Source: a virus. Taken from it: a stretch of 42,922 nt of DNA. Positions 6,405-42,922 of this stretch are shown one piece after another. The notes beneath the pieces are model-generated. The model was not told the DNA's origin. It searched no databases and was given only the letters and a program-made list of their open reading frames with translations. The stretch's first letter is position 1, and each line of letters opens with the position of its first letter. Made by a program: the position numbers and the translations under genes. Location: positions 1 through 42,922 of IMG/VR virus record IMGVR_UViG_3300029910_000049; one strand, written 5' to 3'.

Positions 6405-7094
6405 ATGACGATTAACCCAAATATGAAGGAACAGTTGCTCAAAATCAGCAACGGCCCGAAGTTCATCAATCCCGCCAGCCCTGTGGCCAAATATCTGGCC
6501 GAAAACAAATTCATCGCCATTGACCAGAACACCCGCGACCCGGCCAACCCGGCCAAATTCGCGTTTGAAATCACCGCTACCGGTGCGGCCGAGCTTCCGG
6601 CAGTCGCCGCCCCCGCGCCGCTTTCCGCACCGGCTGGCGTGTCCGCTGGCGGGGTAGCCATCCATGACGCATTCAATGACGCCACCGCCACCGCTGCCAC
6701 CACGGCCCCGGCTCCGGCATCACGCGTTGCTCCTGTCATTTTGACCACTGGCGGCCGGATCAAGATGCCCGCAATCGAGCGCAAGGGCCGGAAGGCTGGC
6801 ACGGTGCGGCCGGAAACCTACCCGTTCAGCACGCTGGAAGCTCCCGTTTGGGATGATGCGGCGGAAGAATATGATTACGATAGCTTCTTTGTTGCCAGCA
6901 CAGAGAGCAACCCTAATCCGACAAAGACGCTGGCCGGTACCATCTCCGGCGCCAATAAGCGCTGGAAAGAGGAAGGCCGCAAGTTCTCGGCTGTGCATGT
7001 GTCGGTTGACGTTAAGCACGGCGTTGACGGTGCCCGTGTGCTTCGCGTTGACGATACCCTGAGCGCGGCGAAGACGCCCGCTACCGTCGCCTAG
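6405..7094 (+). CDS. hypothetical protein (229 aa): small N-terminal domain, Ala/Pro-rich linker, C-terminal domain
   Basis: ATG preceded by GGAGACTGAT. Has its own promoter upstream and a terminator downstream. Confidence 0.7.
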   Translation: MTINPNMKEQLLKISNGPKFINPASPVAKYLAENKFIAIDQNTRDPANPAKFAFEITATGAAELPAVAAPAPLSAPAGVSAGGVAIHDAFNDATATAATTAPAPASRVAPVILTTGGRIKMPAIERKGRKAGTVRPETYPFSTLEAPVWDDAAEEYDYDSFFVASTESNPNPTKTLAGTISGANKRWKEEGRKFSAVHVSVDVKHGVDGARVLRVDDTLSAAKTPATVA

Positions 7095-9939: not shown

Positions 9940-10860
9940 TCAAACGATACATATTACGCCGCCATTATTCCACAGACTACCGGCCAATCCGGCGTTGGTC
10001 AAAGGTAAGTTTGCGCCGCCAGCCGAGACCAGCTCAGCTACGGTCAACCCTACAAAATAGATCAGCGGCGCGGCCGGATTAGGTGTTGTCGTTCCGAACA
10101 CCGTCATAACTTCCCCGTTGTTCCATATATCGCCATTGCTTAAACCAGCATCAGACGTTGGAAATAACGGGGAGGGAACAGTCATTAGTAGCACGCCGCC
10201 ACTATCGCCAAACGTAGGAATGGTGACTGTTAGCAACACGCCTGCCGGACGCGGCAATAAATCGTACTCCTGAATAATGGTAGCTAGATTATCAGATATA
10301 GGATAGTTAAGCGTTATGCTGGCAGTCATATCCAAGTTGTCTACTATGTACGGAAACGTTTTGAACGGCATTCCCGGCCATACCTGTGTAGGCACGCCGT
10401 CTTGTATAATCGTAATGGGATTAGCAAAGAGCCGATAAAGAAAGCCGTTGTCTTCAACAAAGCGACCCTTAGAAACAATCTGCCAATAACGCAGCAACAA
10501 CACAAAGCGTTTTTCAATTGTCGTTAAAAACGCAGGATTGCGCGCCGTTGGATTAAAATTAGCATTGAAAAAGTTTTGATTGAATATGCCAAAGCCCCAA
10601 GGTACCGGACCCGGCGCAGGAGGATTAAGATTTACAGGCGAGTTCAAAATTATTGCCCACACTGCGCATCCGAAGTCATCAGCAGATGTCAACGAAAAAA
10701 CGTTGTTAAACCAGTCAATCCAAAATTGTTCATGGTTGGCCGCATACCAAGCTTGCTTAGCAGACATCAACGCGGTTAGGTTTGGCGCATCGTTATGGCG
10801 CCAAATTATAGCGCTTTTAACATCAGTAGCAAAATCAAATTGCTGATATTGTTCTGTCAT
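9940..10860 (-). CDS. baseplate wedge / fibre-attachment protein, DUF2612-like
   Basis: N-terminal WIDWFNNVFSLTSADDFGCAVWAIILN pattern. Positioned between baseplate J and the fibres. The C-terminus carries two WNNG(G/E)V motifs. Confidence 0.65.
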   Translation of the reverse strand: MTEQYQQFDFATDVKSAIIWRHNDAPNLTALMSAKQAWYAANHEQFWIDWFNNVFSLTSADDFGCAVWAIILNSPVNLNPPAPGPVPWGFGIFNQNFFNANFNPTARNPAFLTTIEKRFVLLLRYWQIVSKGRFVEDNGFLYRLFANPITIIQDGVPTQVWPGMPFKTFPYIVDNLDMTASITLNYPISDNLATIIQEYDLLPRPAGVLLTVTIPTFGDSGGVLLMTVPSPLFPTSDAGLSNGDIWNNGEVMTVFGTTTPNPAAPLIYFVGLTVAELVSAGGANLPLTNAGLAGSLWNNGGVICIV

Positions 10861-35266: not shown

Positions 35267-35604
35267 GTCACACTCCCATCAAAGTGAATTGTCAGATTAT
35301 CAATCAATAGCTCATTCACTATATGATAGTCAACAACTTCCGCTAAGAACAACATGCAATCGTGCGAACTTTGGATATTGGCTTTGCGTTCCGGTTGAAC
35401 CATAAACCACGTCACCCATCCGAATAGATCGCGTACGCCTTCCTCTATATCAAAGCCTGTGACATAGTGATCAGTCAGTTTAACAAGCTTTCTAAACACA
35501 AACGTATCAAGCGAAGCTATAACAACAAAGCGTTTTTTGTTCGTGTCATTCAATGACCATCCGCGCCGCGTCATGCCTTGACGCCATAGATTGCTAGCGC
35601 TCAT
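35257..35604 (-). CDS. hypothetical protein (115 aa)
   Basis: ATGA overlap with the upstream gene. Confidence 0.6.
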   Translation of the reverse strand: MSASNLWRQGMTRRGWSLNDTNKKRFVVIASLDTFVFRKLVKLTDHYVTGFDIEEGVRDLFGWVTWFMVQPERKANIQSSHDCMLFLAEVVDYHIVNELLIDNLTIHFDGSVTWV

Positions 35605-36014
35605 AGTGTTTGTTTAACCTCGCCACAACGTTCACACATATAGACTACAGTACCGTCTGTTCCTTCTAACTTACGATGTCTATGCCCGTATTCTTTACAG
35701 TGCTGCACCATCGCCACGTTAACCGCTTGCCCTGGTGTGCCTACCGTTATCGGCCCATCGCCAAATATGCGGCGTATTTGCTTGTTCACGTATCGAGGGT
35801 TGGTCACGACCCAAACTCCCATTTTTTTGGACGTGTTATTGAGTGACAACACGCCGTTAGGTACGTTGTATCGCTCCGGTATCATGTTGCGTGCTGAGCA
35901 TACGCCAACAATGCTAAACACTTCTTTATGTATGAAGCTACCAAAGGCATACCGCAAACCGGCAAACGCGGCAGCCATTAACAACTTATTATCATCAGGT
36001 GAAACTTTTACCAT
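35601..36014 (-). CDS. hypothetical protein with C-terminal Cys/His cluster (137 aa)
   Basis: GGAG 9 nt upstream of the ATG. HCKEYGHRH...CERCG at the C-terminus. Confidence 0.6.
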   Translation of the reverse strand: MVKVSPDDNKLLMAAAFAGLRYAFGSFIHKEVFSIVGVCSARNMIPERYNVPNGVLSLNNTSKKMGVWVVTNPRYVNKQIRRIFGDGPITVGTPGQAVNVAMVQHCKEYGHRHRKLEGTDGTVVYMCERCGEVKQTL

Positions 36015-36072
36015 CGTCCAAACTCCAATTGTTTAGACCTAATGCCCACACGTGAGCATTAAGTCAAAGCAA

Positions 36073-36273
36073 TTAAGCGTGTTTGTTAAGTTGACGCTCC
36101 AAAGCGCTACCTGTTGCGTGCTTGTCCACCCCTTTCGCTTCGCGGTCAATAATAGCGGCTTCAATCTTAGAACGCTCCTCCTTAGTTTTGGCGCGCAGCA
36201 AAAGGTAAGACTTCAATTCGCACAACGACAAAGTAACAAACGCAACCTTTGATGTTTCAGGCACAGCATCCAT
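36073..36273 (-). CDS. hypothetical protein (66 aa)
   Basis: ATG 36273 (MDAVPE...) is preceded by aaacGGAG plus 9 nt. The longer form to 36321 would start inside the promoter -10. Confidence 0.5.
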   Translation of the reverse strand: MDAVPETSKVAFVTLSLCELKSYLLLRAKTKEERSKIEAAIIDREAKGVDKHATGSALERQLNKHA

Positions 36274-36320
36274 AAGCCCAACTCCGTTTAAGGAAAGCAC
36301 GCGGCCTCCACTTATAATCA

Positions 36321-36349
36321 CTTATAACGCTGTCTAAAAGCAAAGTCAA
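36321..36349 (-). promoter_or_regulatory. sigma70-type promoter (TTGACT-17 nt-TATAAG)
   Basis: On the minus strand, TTGACT at 36349-36344 and TATAAG at 36326-36321. A second TATAAG lies 10 bp downstream. Confidence 0.55.
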
Positions 36350-36401
36350 CACAATACATACACTATAAATCGTCAATCAATCCTATTATTGCAATCTTGT
36401 T

Positions 36402-36489
36402 AATAAGTAAAATAAGTAAAAAATAAGTAGATGATTATATAAGAGAAAGTGGCGGATATCAGCCAATAAGTAAAATAAGTAAGTAAGTA
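36402..36489. repeat. iteron cluster, forward orientation (AATAAGTA x5 plus two AAGTA half copies)
   Basis: Octamer starts at 36402, 36411, 36422, 36465 and 36474. Half copies at 36481 and 36485. Confidence 0.85.
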
Positions 36490-36550
36490 GCGACGATTTA
36501 ATGAATGTGGTATATTACAGGAAATTAATGGTAGGGGTAGGGCAAAATCT

Positions 36551-36648
36551 CCTTATTTACTTATTTTCAAAAATCGGCTGAGTTCTGCGGTTTTTCAGCC
36601 CTAATCCTCTCCTTATTCCTTACTTATTTTCTACTTATTTTACTTATA
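36551..36648. repeat. iteron cluster, inverted orientation (TACTTATT/TACTTATA x4 plus CTTATT partials)
   Basis: Starts at 36558, 36621, 36632 and 36641, with partials at 36552 and 36612. 36621-36647 is the inverted repeat of 36403-36429 (26 of 27 nt). Confidence 0.85.
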
Positions 36649-36711
36649 GAACCGGACCCGGACCTTTTATTAAATAAACTGCCTGTATGATCGCTCACAA
36701 CAAGCAGCGTC

Positions 36712-36912
36712 TTAACCAAAAAATCTTGACTTAGGCTTGCGTTTAAAACGTGACGATAGGCTGACAAACGCCTTATAGCAGCGCTCTAGTAAAACACGCC
36801 TCCGTTTAATTTTAGGCTGTTTGGCAAGCTCAACTTTCTTTCGCTCAGCCAAACGGCACAACATGGCATCGTCACACCTGCACTTAGGCCAATGGCAAAA
36901 CGGATCATTCAT
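36712..36912 (-). CDS. small basic protein with N-terminal Cys cluster (66 aa)
   Basis: CHWPKCRCDDAMLC, then a Lys/Arg-rich tail. Last gene of the replication operon. Confidence 0.5.
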   Translation of the reverse strand: MNDPFCHWPKCRCDDAMLCRLAERKKVELAKQPKIKRRRVLLERCYKAFVSLSSRFKRKPKSRFFG

Positions 36913-37160
36913 AGTAGCAGACTTTTAGCGATAACACTGTTGTATTCCTCCAATGCGATAATACCCAGATCGGTAATGTAGACGCGCTGATATTTGGCAG
37001 CGTGATAATGTGCCGGATAGATTAGCTTGCGGCGTTCCAAGGCAATGCCTGTGCGGTCTGTTATGCTAATACTTGTGCCAACACTACTGTGCGCCCGGCG
37101 CAGCATGATGGCTTGCGCTCTGGTTATTGTATAATCAACGGTTACTATCAGCTTGACCAT
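36909..37160 (-). CDS. hypothetical protein, possible winged-helix (83 aa)
   Basis: ATG 37160 overlaps the helicase stop (TAATG). ITRAQAIMLRRA...ALERRKLI...YITDLGIIALEE pattern. Confidence 0.5.
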   Translation of the reverse strand: MVKLIVTVDYTITRAQAIMLRRAHSSVGTSISITDRTGIALERRKLIYPAHYHAAKYQRVYITDLGIIALEEYNSVIAKSLLL

Positions 37161-38863
37161 TATAAGCCGCGATGTTCGCGCATAAGCGGCGCAAAAATAT
37201 CCATGTTCAGGGTGACGCAAGCGTCAACAGACCCGTTGTATTCTTTGCGGATCAACTCGCCGTATTTAATCATATCGGCCCATGCATCATTGAATGCTCT
37301 GGCGGCGCCTAACGGATGACCCTTGAACGGAAGCAACGCGCGGCAGTAGTTGCGCACCACGTATGCTTGGATAACACCGTTATCTAGCAGCTCAGGCTTT
37401 ACCCCAGGGAGCTTTCCAAACTTGCGTGAACCATGAATATAAAGCTTGACGATAAACTTGCGTATCTCAGCTTGCCTGCGGTCATCGGTGACGCCAATCT
37501 CTCCCGATGAAAACTTTTTGCAAATCTTCTGAACGCAAGGCATGACAATCTTGATTGCTATATCAACGTGTGATGCTTCAATGCGAGGGTTATACGGATT
37601 AACGCCAATGGCTATAAGGCTAGCAATTTGCTTTACGTGTTCTTTGGCCCGGCTCCACATACCAGATGTAGGCAACTCTCTTTCATTATCTTCAACGGTT
37701 GATCGTATACAAACATTTTCAAACCATTTAAGCCTCCCTATCGCTAGGTCATCAATAGGCTTAACGTCTATAACCTGTTCAACATCGCCGGTTAATTGTT
37801 GGCCACGCGAATAGCTTTGATTATATAGCGTTTTGATTTGCTCAAACATCTTAGGATTTAGCGTTGAGACGGGGTTAGGGTTAGGAGCTGTAAGGTTGCC
37901 TTCATACTCCAATACCGTAAAGCGCGGTAAAAATCCGGTGGTTAGAAGATCACCGGATATGTCGTTATAGAACGCTTCCGGTGTGCCGGTTGCGAGGATT
38001 GATAGCGACGCCATGAGCACGTCAATCTCTTCTGGCAGGTTGCTACGCTTTGAATACTTGCGGCCGCGATAGACGCGGCCGGGGCCAGACATCTCCATTA
38101 GGCGTAATAATTCAGAGCGCTCTTGTAGTTTATTGGCAGGGCAGTTTTGCTGTGACATCAGCTTAATGTCTGCGACATATTCATCAGCGTGATAAAGAGT
38201 TGCTGGGCACTCGGCTATATGCTGCGCCAAGCCTTGTGCGCTTCCGATTTGCCCTATGATCATCTTTTTAGCTTGCGCTAGACGCTTCTTCGCTTCTTCA
38301 TAGTGCGGCGGTTTTATGCCTTCGAAAAATTTATGCAGCTCATTAAACCATCTATCGTTTGCGGTATAGGCAAACGATTTGCCGGTTGACGTTTGAGCCA
38401 ACACTAAAAGATAAAGCGATAAGCCTAATGTGCCATGGCGATAAGTGCGTGAACACAGCAGCGACATGGTGGAAAGGGCTGACGCTATGGCCACTTCCGC
38501 AATCTGCCAGGGCGCTCCGTTCCAACACGCCTCTGCCAGCTCGCCCACAAGGCCGGGAATGGCCATAGGTGGCACGGCGGGCGGTAGGTCCAATGTGCGG
38601 CCCTTGTCCTGGCCGTCCGCATCCGTGAAGCCTGCAAACCCGGTCATGGGCGCTATCGCAGGCTGGGGTTGATAGACGGGTATTTCATATTGCGGAATTA
38701 TGGGCGCGGGCGGCGCAGCTTCCCACGGAGCCGGTACCGGCGTGGTGCCTACACTATCGCCAACGGCGAAAGGGTTGTCACTGCTAGGCGGCGAAACGTA
38801 AACGCCGCGCTGCTTGTATAATGTTGGGTGCCACGCCGTAGGATTAAACCAGCCTGTAGTCAA
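37160..38863 (-). CDS. DUF3987-type P-loop NTPase (putative replicative helicase partnered with the primase-polymerase)
   Basis: Walker A LAQTSTGKS and Walker B TLYHADEY. 4-nt overlap with the prim-pol gene. Confidence 0.65.
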   Translation of the reverse strand: MTTGWFNPTAWHPTLYKQRGVYVSPPSSDNPFAVGDSVGTTPVPAPWEAAPPAPIIPQYEIPVYQPQPAIAPMTGFAGFTDADGQDKGRTLDLPPAVPPMAIPGLVGELAEACWNGAPWQIAEVAIASALSTMSLLCSRTYRHGTLGLSLYLLVLAQTSTGKSFAYTANDRWFNELHKFFEGIKPPHYEEAKKRLAQAKKMIIGQIGSAQGLAQHIAECPATLYHADEYVADIKLMSQQNCPANKLQERSELLRLMEMSGPGRVYRGRKYSKRSNLPEEIDVLMASLSILATGTPEAFYNDISGDLLTTGFLPRFTVLEYEGNLTAPNPNPVSTLNPKMFEQIKTLYNQSYSRGQQLTGDVEQVIDVKPIDDLAIGRLKWFENVCIRSTVEDNERELPTSGMWSRAKEHVKQIASLIAIGVNPYNPRIEASHVDIAIKIVMPCVQKICKKFSSGEIGVTDDRRQAEIRKFIVKLYIHGSRKFGKLPGVKPELLDNGVIQAYVVRNYCRALLPFKGHPLGAARAFNDAWADMIKYGELIRKEYNGSVDACVTLNMDIFAPLMREHRGL

Positions 38864-39810
38864 GCGCTTAGTCCTAGCTCTGCCAGTATAGCAATCCGTT
38901 GATTGTGCAGTGCATCAACATCAGCTTTTGATGGCATACGATCAAAAGCGCGCGCTATCATATCGCTTACATACTTGTCATCTGCGCCGCGCGGTATTTG
39001 CGATTTGGGCCGCTGCGCAATTCCGCTCATGCGAAAAATGCGCGCGATTTGCTCCCTATTGTGCGAATAGAAAGCAAGAATATTTATAAGAGCGAAGTCG
39101 GCTTGATTGCAGCTTATGCCATCTGAACTTGTACACAGCCCGTAGTCAGTACGCCAGTCACCATTATACAGGCGCAGGAACTTGTCGCCGTTGGTTGCTC
39201 TGGATGCCGCTTCCCAAACCTGCAAATCTGTTCGCATCGCAGGTTGATCAACATACGTTGTAGCGGCAATTTTCTTGTCCGGTCCAAGTGCCTCATACAG
39301 ATAATCAATCGCACTCTGCCTATGCTCACAATTCCAGGCGTTCATACGATGGCCCGTGAAGGTGAAAAAGCGTAGATTGTCATACATCTCTACGCTGCCT
39401 CGCCGCTTGCCAGCACCGGACAACGTGCCTTTGCAAATGATATGCACTCCGGTGCCGCTTGGGCTCCATTCACTATAGCTCGCAAAACCGGCATAAATCT
39501 GTTCCTGCCAAGCTCTATCGTCTGGCGTAATCGGCGTTCCATTTGTTACATGACTGTCAAGATCAATGCCCGTAAATGGGTCCGCTTTCGTAAACACAAA
39601 CCCCATGCCGTGGCACATTTCGCGCTGCACTTTGTCCGCCGCTGCCTCAAAGCTGCCAAAATCAAGCGGATCATTTACGGCGGCTTTATATAAATCGTGT
39701 GAGCGTAGGGGGATTTTAGTTGGCTTTCTATCGGCCGCTATGGCTTCATAGCGCCAGTTAATCCACTGCCGGTGCTGGCGCAATTCCTCCGGTATATTTT
39801 CAAAATTCAT
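38860..39810 (-). CDS. primase-polymerase (archaeo-eukaryotic primase superfamily)
   Basis: N-terminal RQWINWRYE...KPTKIPL, catalytic GIDLD, SGTGVHII. PriCT-like CNQADFALINILAFYSHNREQIARIFRMSGI. Confidence 0.75.
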   Translation of the reverse strand: MNFENIPEELRQHRQWINWRYEAIAADRKPTKIPLRSHDLYKAAVNDPLDFGSFEAAADKVQREMCHGMGFVFTKADPFTGIDLDSHVTNGTPITPDDRAWQEQIYAGFASYSEWSPSGTGVHIICKGTLSGAGKRRGSVEMYDNLRFFTFTGHRMNAWNCEHRQSAIDYLYEALGPDKKIAATTYVDQPAMRTDLQVWEAASRATNGDKFLRLYNGDWRTDYGLCTSSDGISCNQADFALINILAFYSHNREQIARIFRMSGIAQRPKSQIPRGADDKYVSDMIARAFDRMPSKADVDALHNQRIAILAELGLSA

Positions 39811-39820
39811 TGGTTTAGCC

Positions 39821-40030
39821 TTAAGCTAACGGCAGCGGCTTACGTGCAAGATACTCATATAAACATTGAATTTTGTTCACGCCAGGGTCTTTTATCTGCC
39901 CATTTGCAAGGCATGACAACCAACGGAGATTTAAGCTTGGACACTCTGCAACTATCTGCTCATAGGTTAAGGAGCGCGGCCGGGCCAATAGCAGATTTTG
40001 TGTTGCTTCTAGTAATGAGCCACAACCCAT
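39821..40030 (-). CDS. small HTH DNA-binding protein (69 aa)
   Basis: LTYEQIVAECPSLNLRWLSCLANGQIKDPGVNKIQCLYEYL resembles an XRE/Cro-type HTH. First gene of the leftward operon. Confidence 0.5.
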   Translation of the reverse strand: MGCGSLLEATQNLLLARPRSLTYEQIVAECPSLNLRWLSCLANGQIKDPGVNKIQCLYEYLARKPLPLA

Positions 40031-40033
40031 AGC

Positions 40034-40171
40034 GGTTAACCTTTATATACAGAAATCTTCCGGTAACATGTCTAATAGTGCGTCCCGTATGCAGTCAATA
40101 GGTAAAAACATGATTGACAGCTCATTATTTGAGCCCTACACAAGGCGAGAGACTGAAATCAAGGGTTAACC
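40034..40171. promoter_or_regulatory. divergent early promoter/operator region
   Basis: Back-to-back -35 boxes: TTGACT on the minus strand (40098-40093) and TTGACA on the plus strand (40114-40119), the latter with TACACA 17 nt downstream. GGTTAACC palindromes at 40034-40041 and 40164-40171 abut both start codons. Confidence 0.4.
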
Positions 40172-42222: not shown

Positions 42223-42922
42223 ATGTCGAATATCCGCCTTTCAGGACAGCAACGAATTGCCATAGCTCAATCCTTGAAGGCGGATATGGACGCCCATTGC
42301 GCACAACATTACGATGATGGCCATAGAGCCCATCTTGGTGGCAGCGTCATCGGCGAGCGGTGTTTGCGCAAGCTTTGGTATGCCTTCCGCTGGATGCACC
42401 GGGAGCAATTTGATGGCCGTATGCAGCGCCTATTTAATCGCGGGCATTTGGAAGAGTTGCGCATTATTGAATGGTTACGCGGCATCGGTTCAGTTGTTTA
42501 TGATGTTGACGCCAAAGGAAAACAGTTTCGCATAATAGGATGCGACAACCACTTTGGCGGCGCACTAGACGGCGCCATCATGCTGCCGGTGCGTTATAAT
42601 TTGCCTTTTATATTTTTAACTGAGTTCAAAACGCATAACGACAAGTCATTTAAAAAGCTTGCTAAAGTCGGCTTGATAGAAGCAAAGCCGATGCATTATG
42701 ACCAAATGTGCACGTATGGGTCCGAGCCAATATACAACCTAGATTACGGCATATACTTTGCGATGAATAAAAATGATGACGATATTTACATAGAGGTTAT
42801 CGAACTAGACCATGTGCGCGGTAGGCGTAATGTTGAAACAAAAGCTAACGGTGTAATCCATAGTGACAAGCCGCCGGGCCGCATTTCAGCCAGTGCCGCC
42901 TACAGTGATTGCCTGTACTGCT
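42223..42922 (+). CDS. Cas4-like PD-(D/E)XK exonuclease, N-terminal part (runs off the window end and continues at 128..297 of the circle)
   Basis: ATG 42223, with no stop before the window end. N-terminal Cys (GERCLRKLWY), D...LTEFK (D/ExK) and QMCTY (QxxxY) motifs. Confidence 0.75.
   Translation, partial: MSNIRLSGQQRIAIAQSLKADMDAHCAQHYDDGHRAHLGGSVIGERCLRKLWYAFRWMHREQFDGRMQRLFNRGHLEELRIIEWLRGIGSVVYDVDAKGKQFRIIGCDNHFGGALDGAIMLPVRYNLPFIFLTEFKTHNDKSFKKLAKVGLIEAKPMHYDQMCTYGSEPIYNLDYGIYFAMNKNDDDIYIEVIELDHVRGRRNVETKANGVIHSDKPPGRISASAAYSDCLYC
42796..42922. repeat. Terminal direct repeat, copy 2 (identical to 1..127)
   Basis: See copy 1. Confidence 0.9.

Follow-up and report, generated by a model that had tools for sequence, protein, structure and literature searches.

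Introduction

The replication origins of Staphylococcus aureus pathogenicity islands (SaPIs), of phage-inducible chromosomal islands (PICIs) and of the staphylococcal cassette chromosome element SCCmec consist of 6–12 iterons directly 3′ of the rep gene, with an AT-rich centre that is flanked by at least two iterons per side in opposite directions; a self-loading Rep protein recognizes the iterons through its winged-helix C-terminal domain, and one hexamer per side is thought to be loaded (PMC9371898, PMC7581432, PMC6092414). A SaPI5-like iteron origin has already been inferred in a lytic Enterococcus phage, in a 2026 paper (PMC13517437). Here, we analyze a repeat array in IMG/VR virus record IMGVR_UViG_3300029910_000049, a stretch of 42,922 nucleotides (nt) that we refer to as the window. 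An earlier note, made from the letters of this DNA, had described a dyad-symmetric array of about 14 octamers beside its primase-helicase operon and had put forward a replication origin, with an operator array or a small-RNA locus as alternatives. Because what has been published on SaPI, PICI and SCCmec origins agrees with the array almost point for point, we consider it fairly likely that it is the replication origin of this phage, of the SaPI/PICI type and with iterons bound by a self-loading helicase. In our analysis, the array is best explained as an origin of bidirectional (theta) replication that is built like a pri-rep-ori module, with support that is circumstantial and drawn from sequence comparisons and structure models.

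Octamer repeats form two converging arms

The array described in the earlier note is real. Exact copies of AATAAGTA occur eight times in the window, five on the plus strand (36402, 36411, 36422, 36465 and 36474) and three on the minus strand (36558, 36621 and 36632). Counted on both strands, as the earlier note had proposed, exact copies are confined to 36402–36639 and number zero outside this span of 238 bp, which makes up 0.55% of the genome. In 100 dinucleotide-preserving shuffles of the window, the expected number was 1.26 ± 0.91 copies genome-wide with a maximum of 3, and none of the 100 shuffles reached 8. Five more sites inside the array match with one mismatch (36478, 36482, 36550, 36610 and 36641). 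Genome-wide, one-mismatch sites occur at chance level (32 observed against 33.7 expected), and it is therefore only the clustering of AATAAGTA-type sites that is special. When one mismatch is allowed and overlapping sites are left out, there are six sites per strand, in two sets that converge on a site-free centre:

36402–36489, plus strand: helicase-distal putative iteron arm, with six non-overlapping AATAAGTA-type sites pointing towards the centre (outer sites 36402, 36411 and 36422; inner sites 36465, 36474 and 36482)
36490–36549, no strand: site-free centre and proposed melting zone, with an AT-rich stretch at 36496–36530 and a GGTAGGGGTAGGG run at 36531–36543
36550–36648, minus strand: helicase-proximal putative iteron arm, with six AATAAGTA-type sites pointing towards the centre (outer sites 36641, 36632, 36621 and 36610; inner sites 36558 and 36550)

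The site at 36478 overlaps its neighbours in the helicase-distal arm. The count of about 14 sites is a fair one if the one-mismatch sites and two ACTTATA half sites at 36310 and 36320 are included. The outer triplets form the 27-nt inverted repeat (36403–36429 and 36621–36647) that had been placed about 190 bp apart; its arms are 96% complementary and separated by 191 nt, and the spacings within the triplets are mirrored (9/11 and 11/9 bp). In the helicase-proximal arm, the outer and inner sites are separated by a GC-richer spacer that holds a weak hairpin (36577–36601).

The array is also the top k-mer cluster in the genome, with a hexamer count of 11 where the next best cluster reaches 6, and the least stable duplex in the genome at scales of 40, 60, 100 and 200 nt. 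The two least stable 100-nt windows are 36465–36564 and 36348–36447, and the stacking energy of 36334–36533 is −229.8 kcal/mol, compared to a genome mean of −286.3 (standard deviation 15.5).

The layout recurs next to the helicase genes of diverged relatives

A search of viral contigs for the locus with a single protein returned no match; a profile search was successful. In a protein search, 36 relatives were obtained at 39–59% identity and two at 25%, many of them on contigs of ~45 kb. Annotated relatives of the helicase encoded next to the array were all less than 30% identical. At the DNA level, a near-identity search of 35500–38900 against GenBank phages gave no match, and thus no close relative among deposited phages.

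Dense two-armed arrays were found 3′ of the helicase gene in eleven distinct and diverged lineages (helicases 37–59% identical), each with 7–15 sites over 176–341 nt. The repeat motifs, listed here by locus, differ between lineages:

Window and L022: ATAAGTA
L003 and L005: TTAGTATG
L023: ATAGTA
L008: AAGTATG / TAGTAG
L001: TATGTA
L021: AATAATATG (array identified by eye)
L011: GGTAAT
L006: CCGGTATA
L019: CTACCAG plus GGTATAT

In 10 of the 11 lineages, all forward copies (those on the helicase-sense strand) precede the reverse ones, the exception being L006, which has mixed, palindromic sites. The site-free centres measure 48–234 nt, with AT fractions of 0.56–0.81. Outside the arrays, the motifs are rare or absent in most loci; with the looser patterns applied to L008 and the window, the remainder of the locus, which is much longer, holds about the same number of matches as the array. 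Per 300-nt window, hexamer counts peaked at 7–11 in ten array loci and at 5 in L019, compared to 4 where the scan found no array.

In six lineages (L023, L008, L001, L021, L006 and L019), the array starts 9–86 nt past the helicase stop codon. The window array starts 513 nt past it, behind two lineage-specific small open reading frames (ORFs) and a terminator, and unrelated small ORFs lie between helicase and array in the window, L022, L003 and L005. A MAFFT alignment of eight arrays was collinear in design, running from outer repeats through a spacer and inner repeats to the centre and then through the mirror image of this order, with low sequence identity. The repeat layout is kept among relatives, and the central sequence is not conserved. 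The comparison of syntenic gaps suggested in the earlier note thus bears out a recurring layout, with a repeat sequence that is specific to each lineage. Judging from these sequences, a kept layout, a changing repeat and a link to one gene are together what is expected of a cis site with a cognate binding protein.

Several further features were seen in or beside these arrays. None of the extra motifs shared between array centres stood out robustly above the AT-rich background. Short secondary boxes recur at comparable places in the arrays of some relatives: a GAAACCC box occurs in L003 (8481), L005 (8600) and L022 (7510), where GGCnGAAACCC precedes the outer reverse repeats, and a TGAGAC box lies near the array centre in L011 (8173), L019 (1730), L021 (6765) and L024 (~10140–10165); both could be sites for a second factor, and neither is statistically robust against the AT-rich background. 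The window (36568–36590, plus strand) and L022 (7393–7415) have a box of ~20 nt in common (AAAAAtCGGCtGAGTTCTGCG and AAAAA-CGGCgGAGTTCTGCG, respectively). In both, this box belongs to the helicase-proximal arm, where it has outer repeats on one side and inner repeats on the other, and its orientation relative to the helicase gene is opposite in the two. The array centres of three lineages contain TTAA-N7-TAA (window 36515–36528, L003 8423–8436 and L023 7740–7753). The CtrA box is TTAA-N7-TTAA, of which this may be a half match; chance occurrence in AT-rich DNA is another option.

The contigs of L002 and L010 end in or near their arrays, for which we settled on ordinary causes, namely a break in low-complexity repeats and a Gly-rich repeat gene. 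In L010, a highly repetitive GCCGCTGCC-type stretch (6420–6616) lies beside the helicase and extends to the contig end, and is probably a gene on the opposite strand for a Gly/Ser-rich repeat protein. Locus L006 (OY968826.1, 145729–157246), with its CCGGTATA-type array 47 nt past the helicase, lies inside a 2.9-Mb alphaproteobacterial chromosome from a metagenome-assembled genome. This location gives a clue to the host range and perhaps to existence as a prophage or episome, and because of this one relative, the host of the phage clade may be alphaproteobacterial.

The array adjoins genes for a primase-polymerase and an initiator-type helicase

The window is a circular assembly, in which the first 127 nt are repeated exactly at 42796–42922. 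It is a complete phage genome of 42,795 bp that is cut open within the region of the rightward operon. Its genes are organized as follows:

40030 down to 7177, minus strand: gene run
Start of this run, minus strand: first block, with a 69-amino-acid (aa) helix-turn-helix (HTH) protein, the primase-polymerase (prim-pol), the DUF3987 helicase and two small ORFs
From 40114, plus strand: operon with DUF7173, Sak4, an SSB-like protein, a DEAD-box helicase, a clamp-like processivity factor and a DNA polymerase

The first minus-strand block is followed by the terminator, the array, a promoter, many small ORFs and then the virion genes, among which a major head protein and tail fibre proteins were detected. 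No integrase or recombinase was found with Pfam and PHROG among the mid-size and large ORFs scanned. Given this result and the replication genes of the phage, the element resembles a virulent phage that encodes a replisome of its own. Three proteins of the first block are of interest as partners of the array:

38860–39810, minus strand: prim-pol of 316 aa, an archaeo-eukaryotic primase (AEP) with an NrS-1-type helix-bundle domain (Pfam PF22763, E 8e-9)
37160–38863, minus strand: AAA+ replicative/initiator helicase of 567 aa (Pfam DUF3987, E 1.6e-7)
39821–40030, minus strand: HTH protein of 69 aa, first gene of the operon (BLASTP, 33–58% identity in 9 relatives)

The prim-pol matches DNA primase families of PHROG with E-values of 1e-55 to 1e-60. 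Through members in which prim-pol and helicase are fused, the profile of the family hits the prim-pol portion of SaPI5 PriRep5 (7OLA, E 1e-43) as well as the NrS-1 primase (6K9A, E 5e-40). The two genes are separate in the window, where they overlap by 4 nt (38860–38863). Among the relatives (proteins P0009–P0033), some have the same arrangement, and in about half the two are fused into one protein of ~800 aa.

An AlphaFold2 model of the helicase reached a mean confidence (pLDDT) of 80.7, with a disordered stretch of ~90 residues at the N-terminus that corresponds to the linker of the fused proteins. Foldseek matched this model to MCM2-7 subunits (E from 3e-6), ORC/Cdc6 and SaPI PriRep1 with double-stranded DNA (7PDS, E 1.8e-3), and the model thereby supports a replication-initiator AAA+ fold. 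When the last 113 residues (~455–567) were modelled alone (pLDDT 87.3), they formed three helices, a beta hairpin and a terminal helix, and nearly all of their best Foldseek neighbours are winged-helix proteins (SSV1 F-93, forkhead domains, the Cdt1 C-terminus, MarR-type regulators, MukE and ORC1). In the model, the C-terminal domain looks like a winged helix, and we propose it as the reader of the iterons.

The proteins that recur beside the arrays of relatives are the prim-pol, the helicase and the HTH protein, which is kept 5′ of the prim-pol in 9 relative loci and has weak HTH_31/HTH_19 matches in a few members. We regard the HTH protein as the second candidate binder, less likely than the helicase. 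The earlier note had named two other candidates, an 83-aa ORF (103/83 aa) and a 66-aa ORF between helicase and array. Neither matches Pfam, PHROG, NCBIfam or the Protein Data Bank (PDB), and the label “wHTH-like” given to the 83-aa ORF could not be confirmed by any family or structure match. Neither has a homologue in any relative locus, and the small ORFs near other arrays are unrelated to one another or absent. Because of this lack of homologues, and because the six arrays that start 9–86 nt past the helicase stop do so without such ORFs, we dropped both proteins as conserved binding partners.

Between the divergent operons, two further elements were seen. Back-to-back TGTCAA … TTGAC boxes lie between the HTH and DUF7173 genes of the window (40060–40100) and of every relative compared (L001, L003, L005, L008, L011, L021, L022 and L023), and probably represent −35 elements from which the early genes are divergently transcribed. 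Two copies of the 8-bp palindrome GGTTAACC are spaced 130 bp apart, one just 5′ of the HTH gene start (40034–40041) and the other inside the start of the first rightward ORF (40164–40171); they bracket the divergent promoter region and could serve as operators. Across the genome, the heptamer GGTTAAC shows no enrichment.

A promoter and a probable terminator flank the array

Three putative transcription signals were placed in and around the repeats:

36668–36708, minus strand: probable intrinsic terminator, with a hairpin at 36678–36708 followed by UUUAUUUAAU at 36668–36677
36434–36462, minus strand: promoter-like CTGATA-17-TATAAT in the helicase-distal arm, with the outer sites on one side and the inner sites on the other, matching 10 of 12 consensus positions
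36310–36349, minus strand: promoter of the next leftward operon, with TTGACT (36349–36344), 17 bp and TATAAG (36326–36321)

The terminator-like hairpin, which the earlier note had not listed, lies directly 3′ of the 66-aa ORF. It folds with −15.9 kcal/mol (z −3.4, an energy that none of 200 shuffles matched) and is the probable end of the primase-helicase operon, by its sequence. A consensus terminator scan of the array region listed none, this hairpin being among its misses. The GGCTGA/TCAGCC hairpin that had been noted between the arms is present and weak (36577–36601, −8.6 kcal/mol, z −1.2, 13-nt loop). With this weak fold, no terminator in the consensus scan and the better hairpin at 36678–36708, we rejected it as a terminator.

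Of the promoters proposed earlier, TTGACT-17-TATAAG is found in the sequence, on the minus strand at 36349–36321. Two iteron-like CACTTATAA half sites in direct repeat (36309–36317 and 36319–36327) overlap its −10 element, and the next leftward gene starts with an ATG at 36273 that is preceded by GGAG. The CTGATA-17-TATAAT pair is present as described (36462–36434) and carries no statistical weight, as 1 site was found in 1 kb compared to a shuffle mean of 2.2; its function is uncertain. The extended −10 TGgTATATT on the plus strand also exists, at 36508–36516, starting one base later than had been reported.

A model for origin function

Based on these observations, we propose the following model. 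The leftward early operon would supply the HTH protein, the AEP prim-pol and the AAA+ helicase, and would stop at the terminator. Directly 3′ lie two sets of about six 8-bp putative iterons (AATAAGTA), 9–11 bp apart, which converge across ~60 nt of DNA that should be easily melted. The helicase would read these sites through its C-terminal winged-helix-like domain and assemble as one hexamer per arm, the two facing each other; six sites per arm would fit one site per subunit. The helicase would then melt the centre (36490–36549) and load itself, the prim-pol would prime, and the phage polymerase with its clamp-like processivity factor would take over, so that replication would start at the array. 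Judging from the two iteron-like half sites over the −10 element of the next promoter, the same protein may also damp the downstream operon, which would reconcile an origin with the operator array that the earlier note had offered as an alternative. A more specific version, which we think doubtful, is that the clade uses a two-tier six-plus-six origin in which each arm templates one MCM-like self-loading helicase hexamer, and in which the shared GTA-containing core of the iterons may also be the start site of the NrS-1-type prim-pol.

A number of observations weigh against an origin of this kind. Two groups of relatives, the lineage L009/L018/L024 and L017, have no array directly 3′ of the helicase, where a terminator and opposite-strand genes follow instead. 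In L024 (7403–10326; also in L009/L018), helicase and terminator are followed by six opposite-strand genes and a gap of 930 nt with GAGAC/GTCTC repeats, after which the next rightward operon begins. In this lineage, the place usually taken by the array appears to be disrupted, or replaced by a different repeat set. Phage 73 and RcTitan (25–28% identical) share the gene order of the window and have no comparable array after the primase, and the array is therefore limited to a closer clade. Within the window, the centre is not more AT-rich than the arms. Cumulative GC skew, which had been suggested as a check, proved uninformative: its minimum near 37–40 kb tracks the switch in transcription direction, and no replication signal could be read from third-codon-position skew in the four gene blocks (+0.002, +0.083, −0.002 and −0.064). 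As for the helicase, its C-terminal domain is assigned to the winged-helix fold with weak Foldseek E-values of 0.017–0.3, and helicase-only sequence gave no sequence match in the PDB. Finally, no co-variation was visible between the motifs and either the helicase segments (1–100, 101–270, 271–450 and 451–567) or the 69-aa HTH protein: the window and L022 share ATAAGTA, yet their helicase segments and HTH proteins are no more alike than those of other pairs. This comparison has low power with its one informative pair, and because of that it neither supports nor excludes the helicase as the reader.

Alternative explanations for the array

The strongest alternative is that the array is a transcription-control region, in which a phage regulator, with the conserved HTH protein of 69 aa and a small protein specific to the lineage as candidates, binds operators or activator sites to set the switch between the primase-helicase operon and the downstream small-gene operon. 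We judge this unlikely, even though the array is placed between a terminator and the next promoter, whose −10 element is overlapped by the two half sites. The neighbourhood in relatives can be read in the same direction: the outer reverse repeats of L022 are only ~55 nt 5′ of the start codon that follows, helicase and array are separated by small opposite-strand ORFs in L003 and L005, and the conserved HTH protein comes first in the operon. However, twelve sites over 250 bp around a site-free, AT-rich centre would be an unusual operator layout, and in L023 and L008 a promoter-like match, as read by eye, lies ~80–180 nt beyond the array. Moreover, the constant neighbour of the array is the helicase gene rather than any adjacent regulator, and small ORFs nearby are either missing or differ from lineage to lineage without any relationship. 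A dual role as origin and control region is conceivable; promoters next to iteron origins are often under the control of these origins as well.

Far less probable, in our view, is that the array serves in partition as a centromere-like site, or that it is bound by packaging or other structural proteins. Phased-repeat arrays occur in parC, parS and pac regions, and the repeats phased at 9–11 bp in two blocks resemble parC of plasmid R1, which likewise has phased repeats in two blocks; L006 also shows at least one relative in a bacterial chromosome assembly. Against partition, no ParA/ParM-type ATPase and no ParB/ParR-like gene were among the neighbouring ORFs scanned. Against packaging, the terminase genes appear to lie ~7 kb away (~27.7–29.8 kb), as judged from the order, position and size of two ORFs that have no PHROG or Pfam match. 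For both, the conserved linkage is to the helicase gene.

A phage attachment site is more improbable still. The attP site of lambda has a comparable size (~250 bp) and two arms of short binding repeats, and the array resembles it in size and in its two arms of inverted short repeats, which could be arm-type integrase sites flanking a core. With no integrase or recombinase among the mid-size or large ORFs scanned and a genome that looks like that of a virulent phage, we rejected attP, as we did a partition site for want of partition genes among the ORFs scanned. Equally remote is a small RNA encoded in the gap, with the repeats incidental or part of its promoter and terminator: the promoter-like hexamers in the centre and the hairpin followed by a T run would suit it, but the whole window gave no Rfam family match, the 181-nt minus-strand fold is no better than shuffles (z −1.2) with its weak hairpin, and it is the repeat layout rather than the central sequence that relatives conserve.

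Discussion

The array provides a concrete origin candidate for a clade of environmental phages in which nearly all early genes are unannotated, and nominates the DUF3987 helicase as its initiator. If the model holds, it would extend the pri-rep-ori design of pathogenicity-island satellites to full-size phages with their own polymerase, which bears on the origins of satellite replicons. The eleven lineage-specific pairs of iterons and helicases would offer a natural series on how a winged-helix initiator shifts its DNA specificity. In addition, the array marks a short fragment that could be used as an origin-based decoy against these phages, or as a cis element of a phage-derived vector.

The origin proposed in the earlier note was modelled on satellite phage P4. 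In P4, the alpha primase-helicase combines a DnaG-like primase domain, an SF3 helicase and a C-terminal DNA-binding domain in one chain and uses the last of these to read octamer iterons; replication needs ori and crr, two loci ~4.5 kb apart, of which crr lies just 3′ of the alpha gene. Like P4, the window has octamer repeats 3′ of a helicase gene, with proposed reading by the C-terminal domain of a primase/helicase system. In contrast to P4, it has a single cluster in place of two loci, its primase is an AEP prim-pol on a separate polypeptide, and the motif of P4 is unrelated to AATAAGTA. The idea of an origin itself is supported by the unique motif, the recurring layout, the initiator-type helicase model and the SaPI5-like prim-pol, whereas the P4 analogy has to give way to the SaPI/PICI pri-rep-ori module as the closest analogue. 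Origins of the lambda type consist of iterons, bound by the O protein, and an AT-rich region, with the iterons inside the initiator gene. They share with the window that phased iterons adjoin an AT-rich region for unwinding, but the window array is intergenic and dyad-symmetric, in a phage with its own helicase.

Two further systems place their repeats directly 3′ of a primase/helicase gene. In SCCmec, the repeats are bound by the C-terminal domain of the helicase Cch2, as we propose for the window, but they are only three direct repeats (PMC7581432). In the archaeal plasmid pRN1, the origin or initiator-binding repeats follow orf904, but the essential part is a 166-bp segment without a symmetric iteron array (PMC4234260).

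The likeness to SaPIs and PICIs, Gram-negative PICIs included, goes further. In these elements, the initiator is a hexameric AAA+ helicase of the SF3 or SF6/MCM-like type that binds its cognate iterons specifically, and the pri-rep-ori segment replicates autonomously. Both systems comprise an AEP primase, which is the primase type of SaPIbov1 and SaPI5, an initiator helicase that is either split from it or fused to it, and an origin on the 3′ side, and the split Pri/Rep of SaPI1 and the fused PriRep of SaPI5 parallel the split and fused genes in the clade of the window. The primase gene of the window lies directly 5′ of the initiator helicase gene; the array follows the helicase gene, immediately in the six relatives and after 513 nt in the window; and two opposed sets of sites (6 + 6, converging) surround an AT-rich region, within the 6–12 sites in total known from SaPIs and PICIs. 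The prim-pol shares sequence homology with that of SaPI5 PriRep5, and the C-terminal domain of the helicase may be a winged helix, which in the window is a weak structural match. The differences are that the window element is a full phage of 42.8 kb that carries structural genes and a DNA polymerase of its own, while a SaPI is an integrated satellite; that its helicase part has no sequence match to SaPI Reps and is structurally nearest to MCM; that its sites are 8 bp long rather than 5–6 bp; that each arm is split by a GC-richer spacer into an outer and an inner cluster; and that two unrelated small ORFs and a terminator lie between helicase and array. A PICI is defined by an integrase, the lack of a full virion gene set and dependence on a helper phage, while the window is a complete circular phage in which no integrase was found. 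The locus thus fits the pri-rep-ori architecture, apart from the weakly supported winged-helix domain, yet the element is not a PICI.

The nearest precedent among phages is Enterococcus phage Abitsa (Efquatrovirus), a lytic phage with a SaPI5-like origin that was also inferred from sequence (PMC13517437). Its host phylum is not that of the window phage, its origin has seven 10-bp repeats compared to about twelve 8-bp sites, and its helicase is reported to share homology with PriRep5's helicase region, which is not detectably the case for the helicase described here. Because a similar origin had already been inferred in that phage, the window array is not a new design; it is a further case of a known one, in a new phage clade and with an MCM-like DUF3987 helicase.

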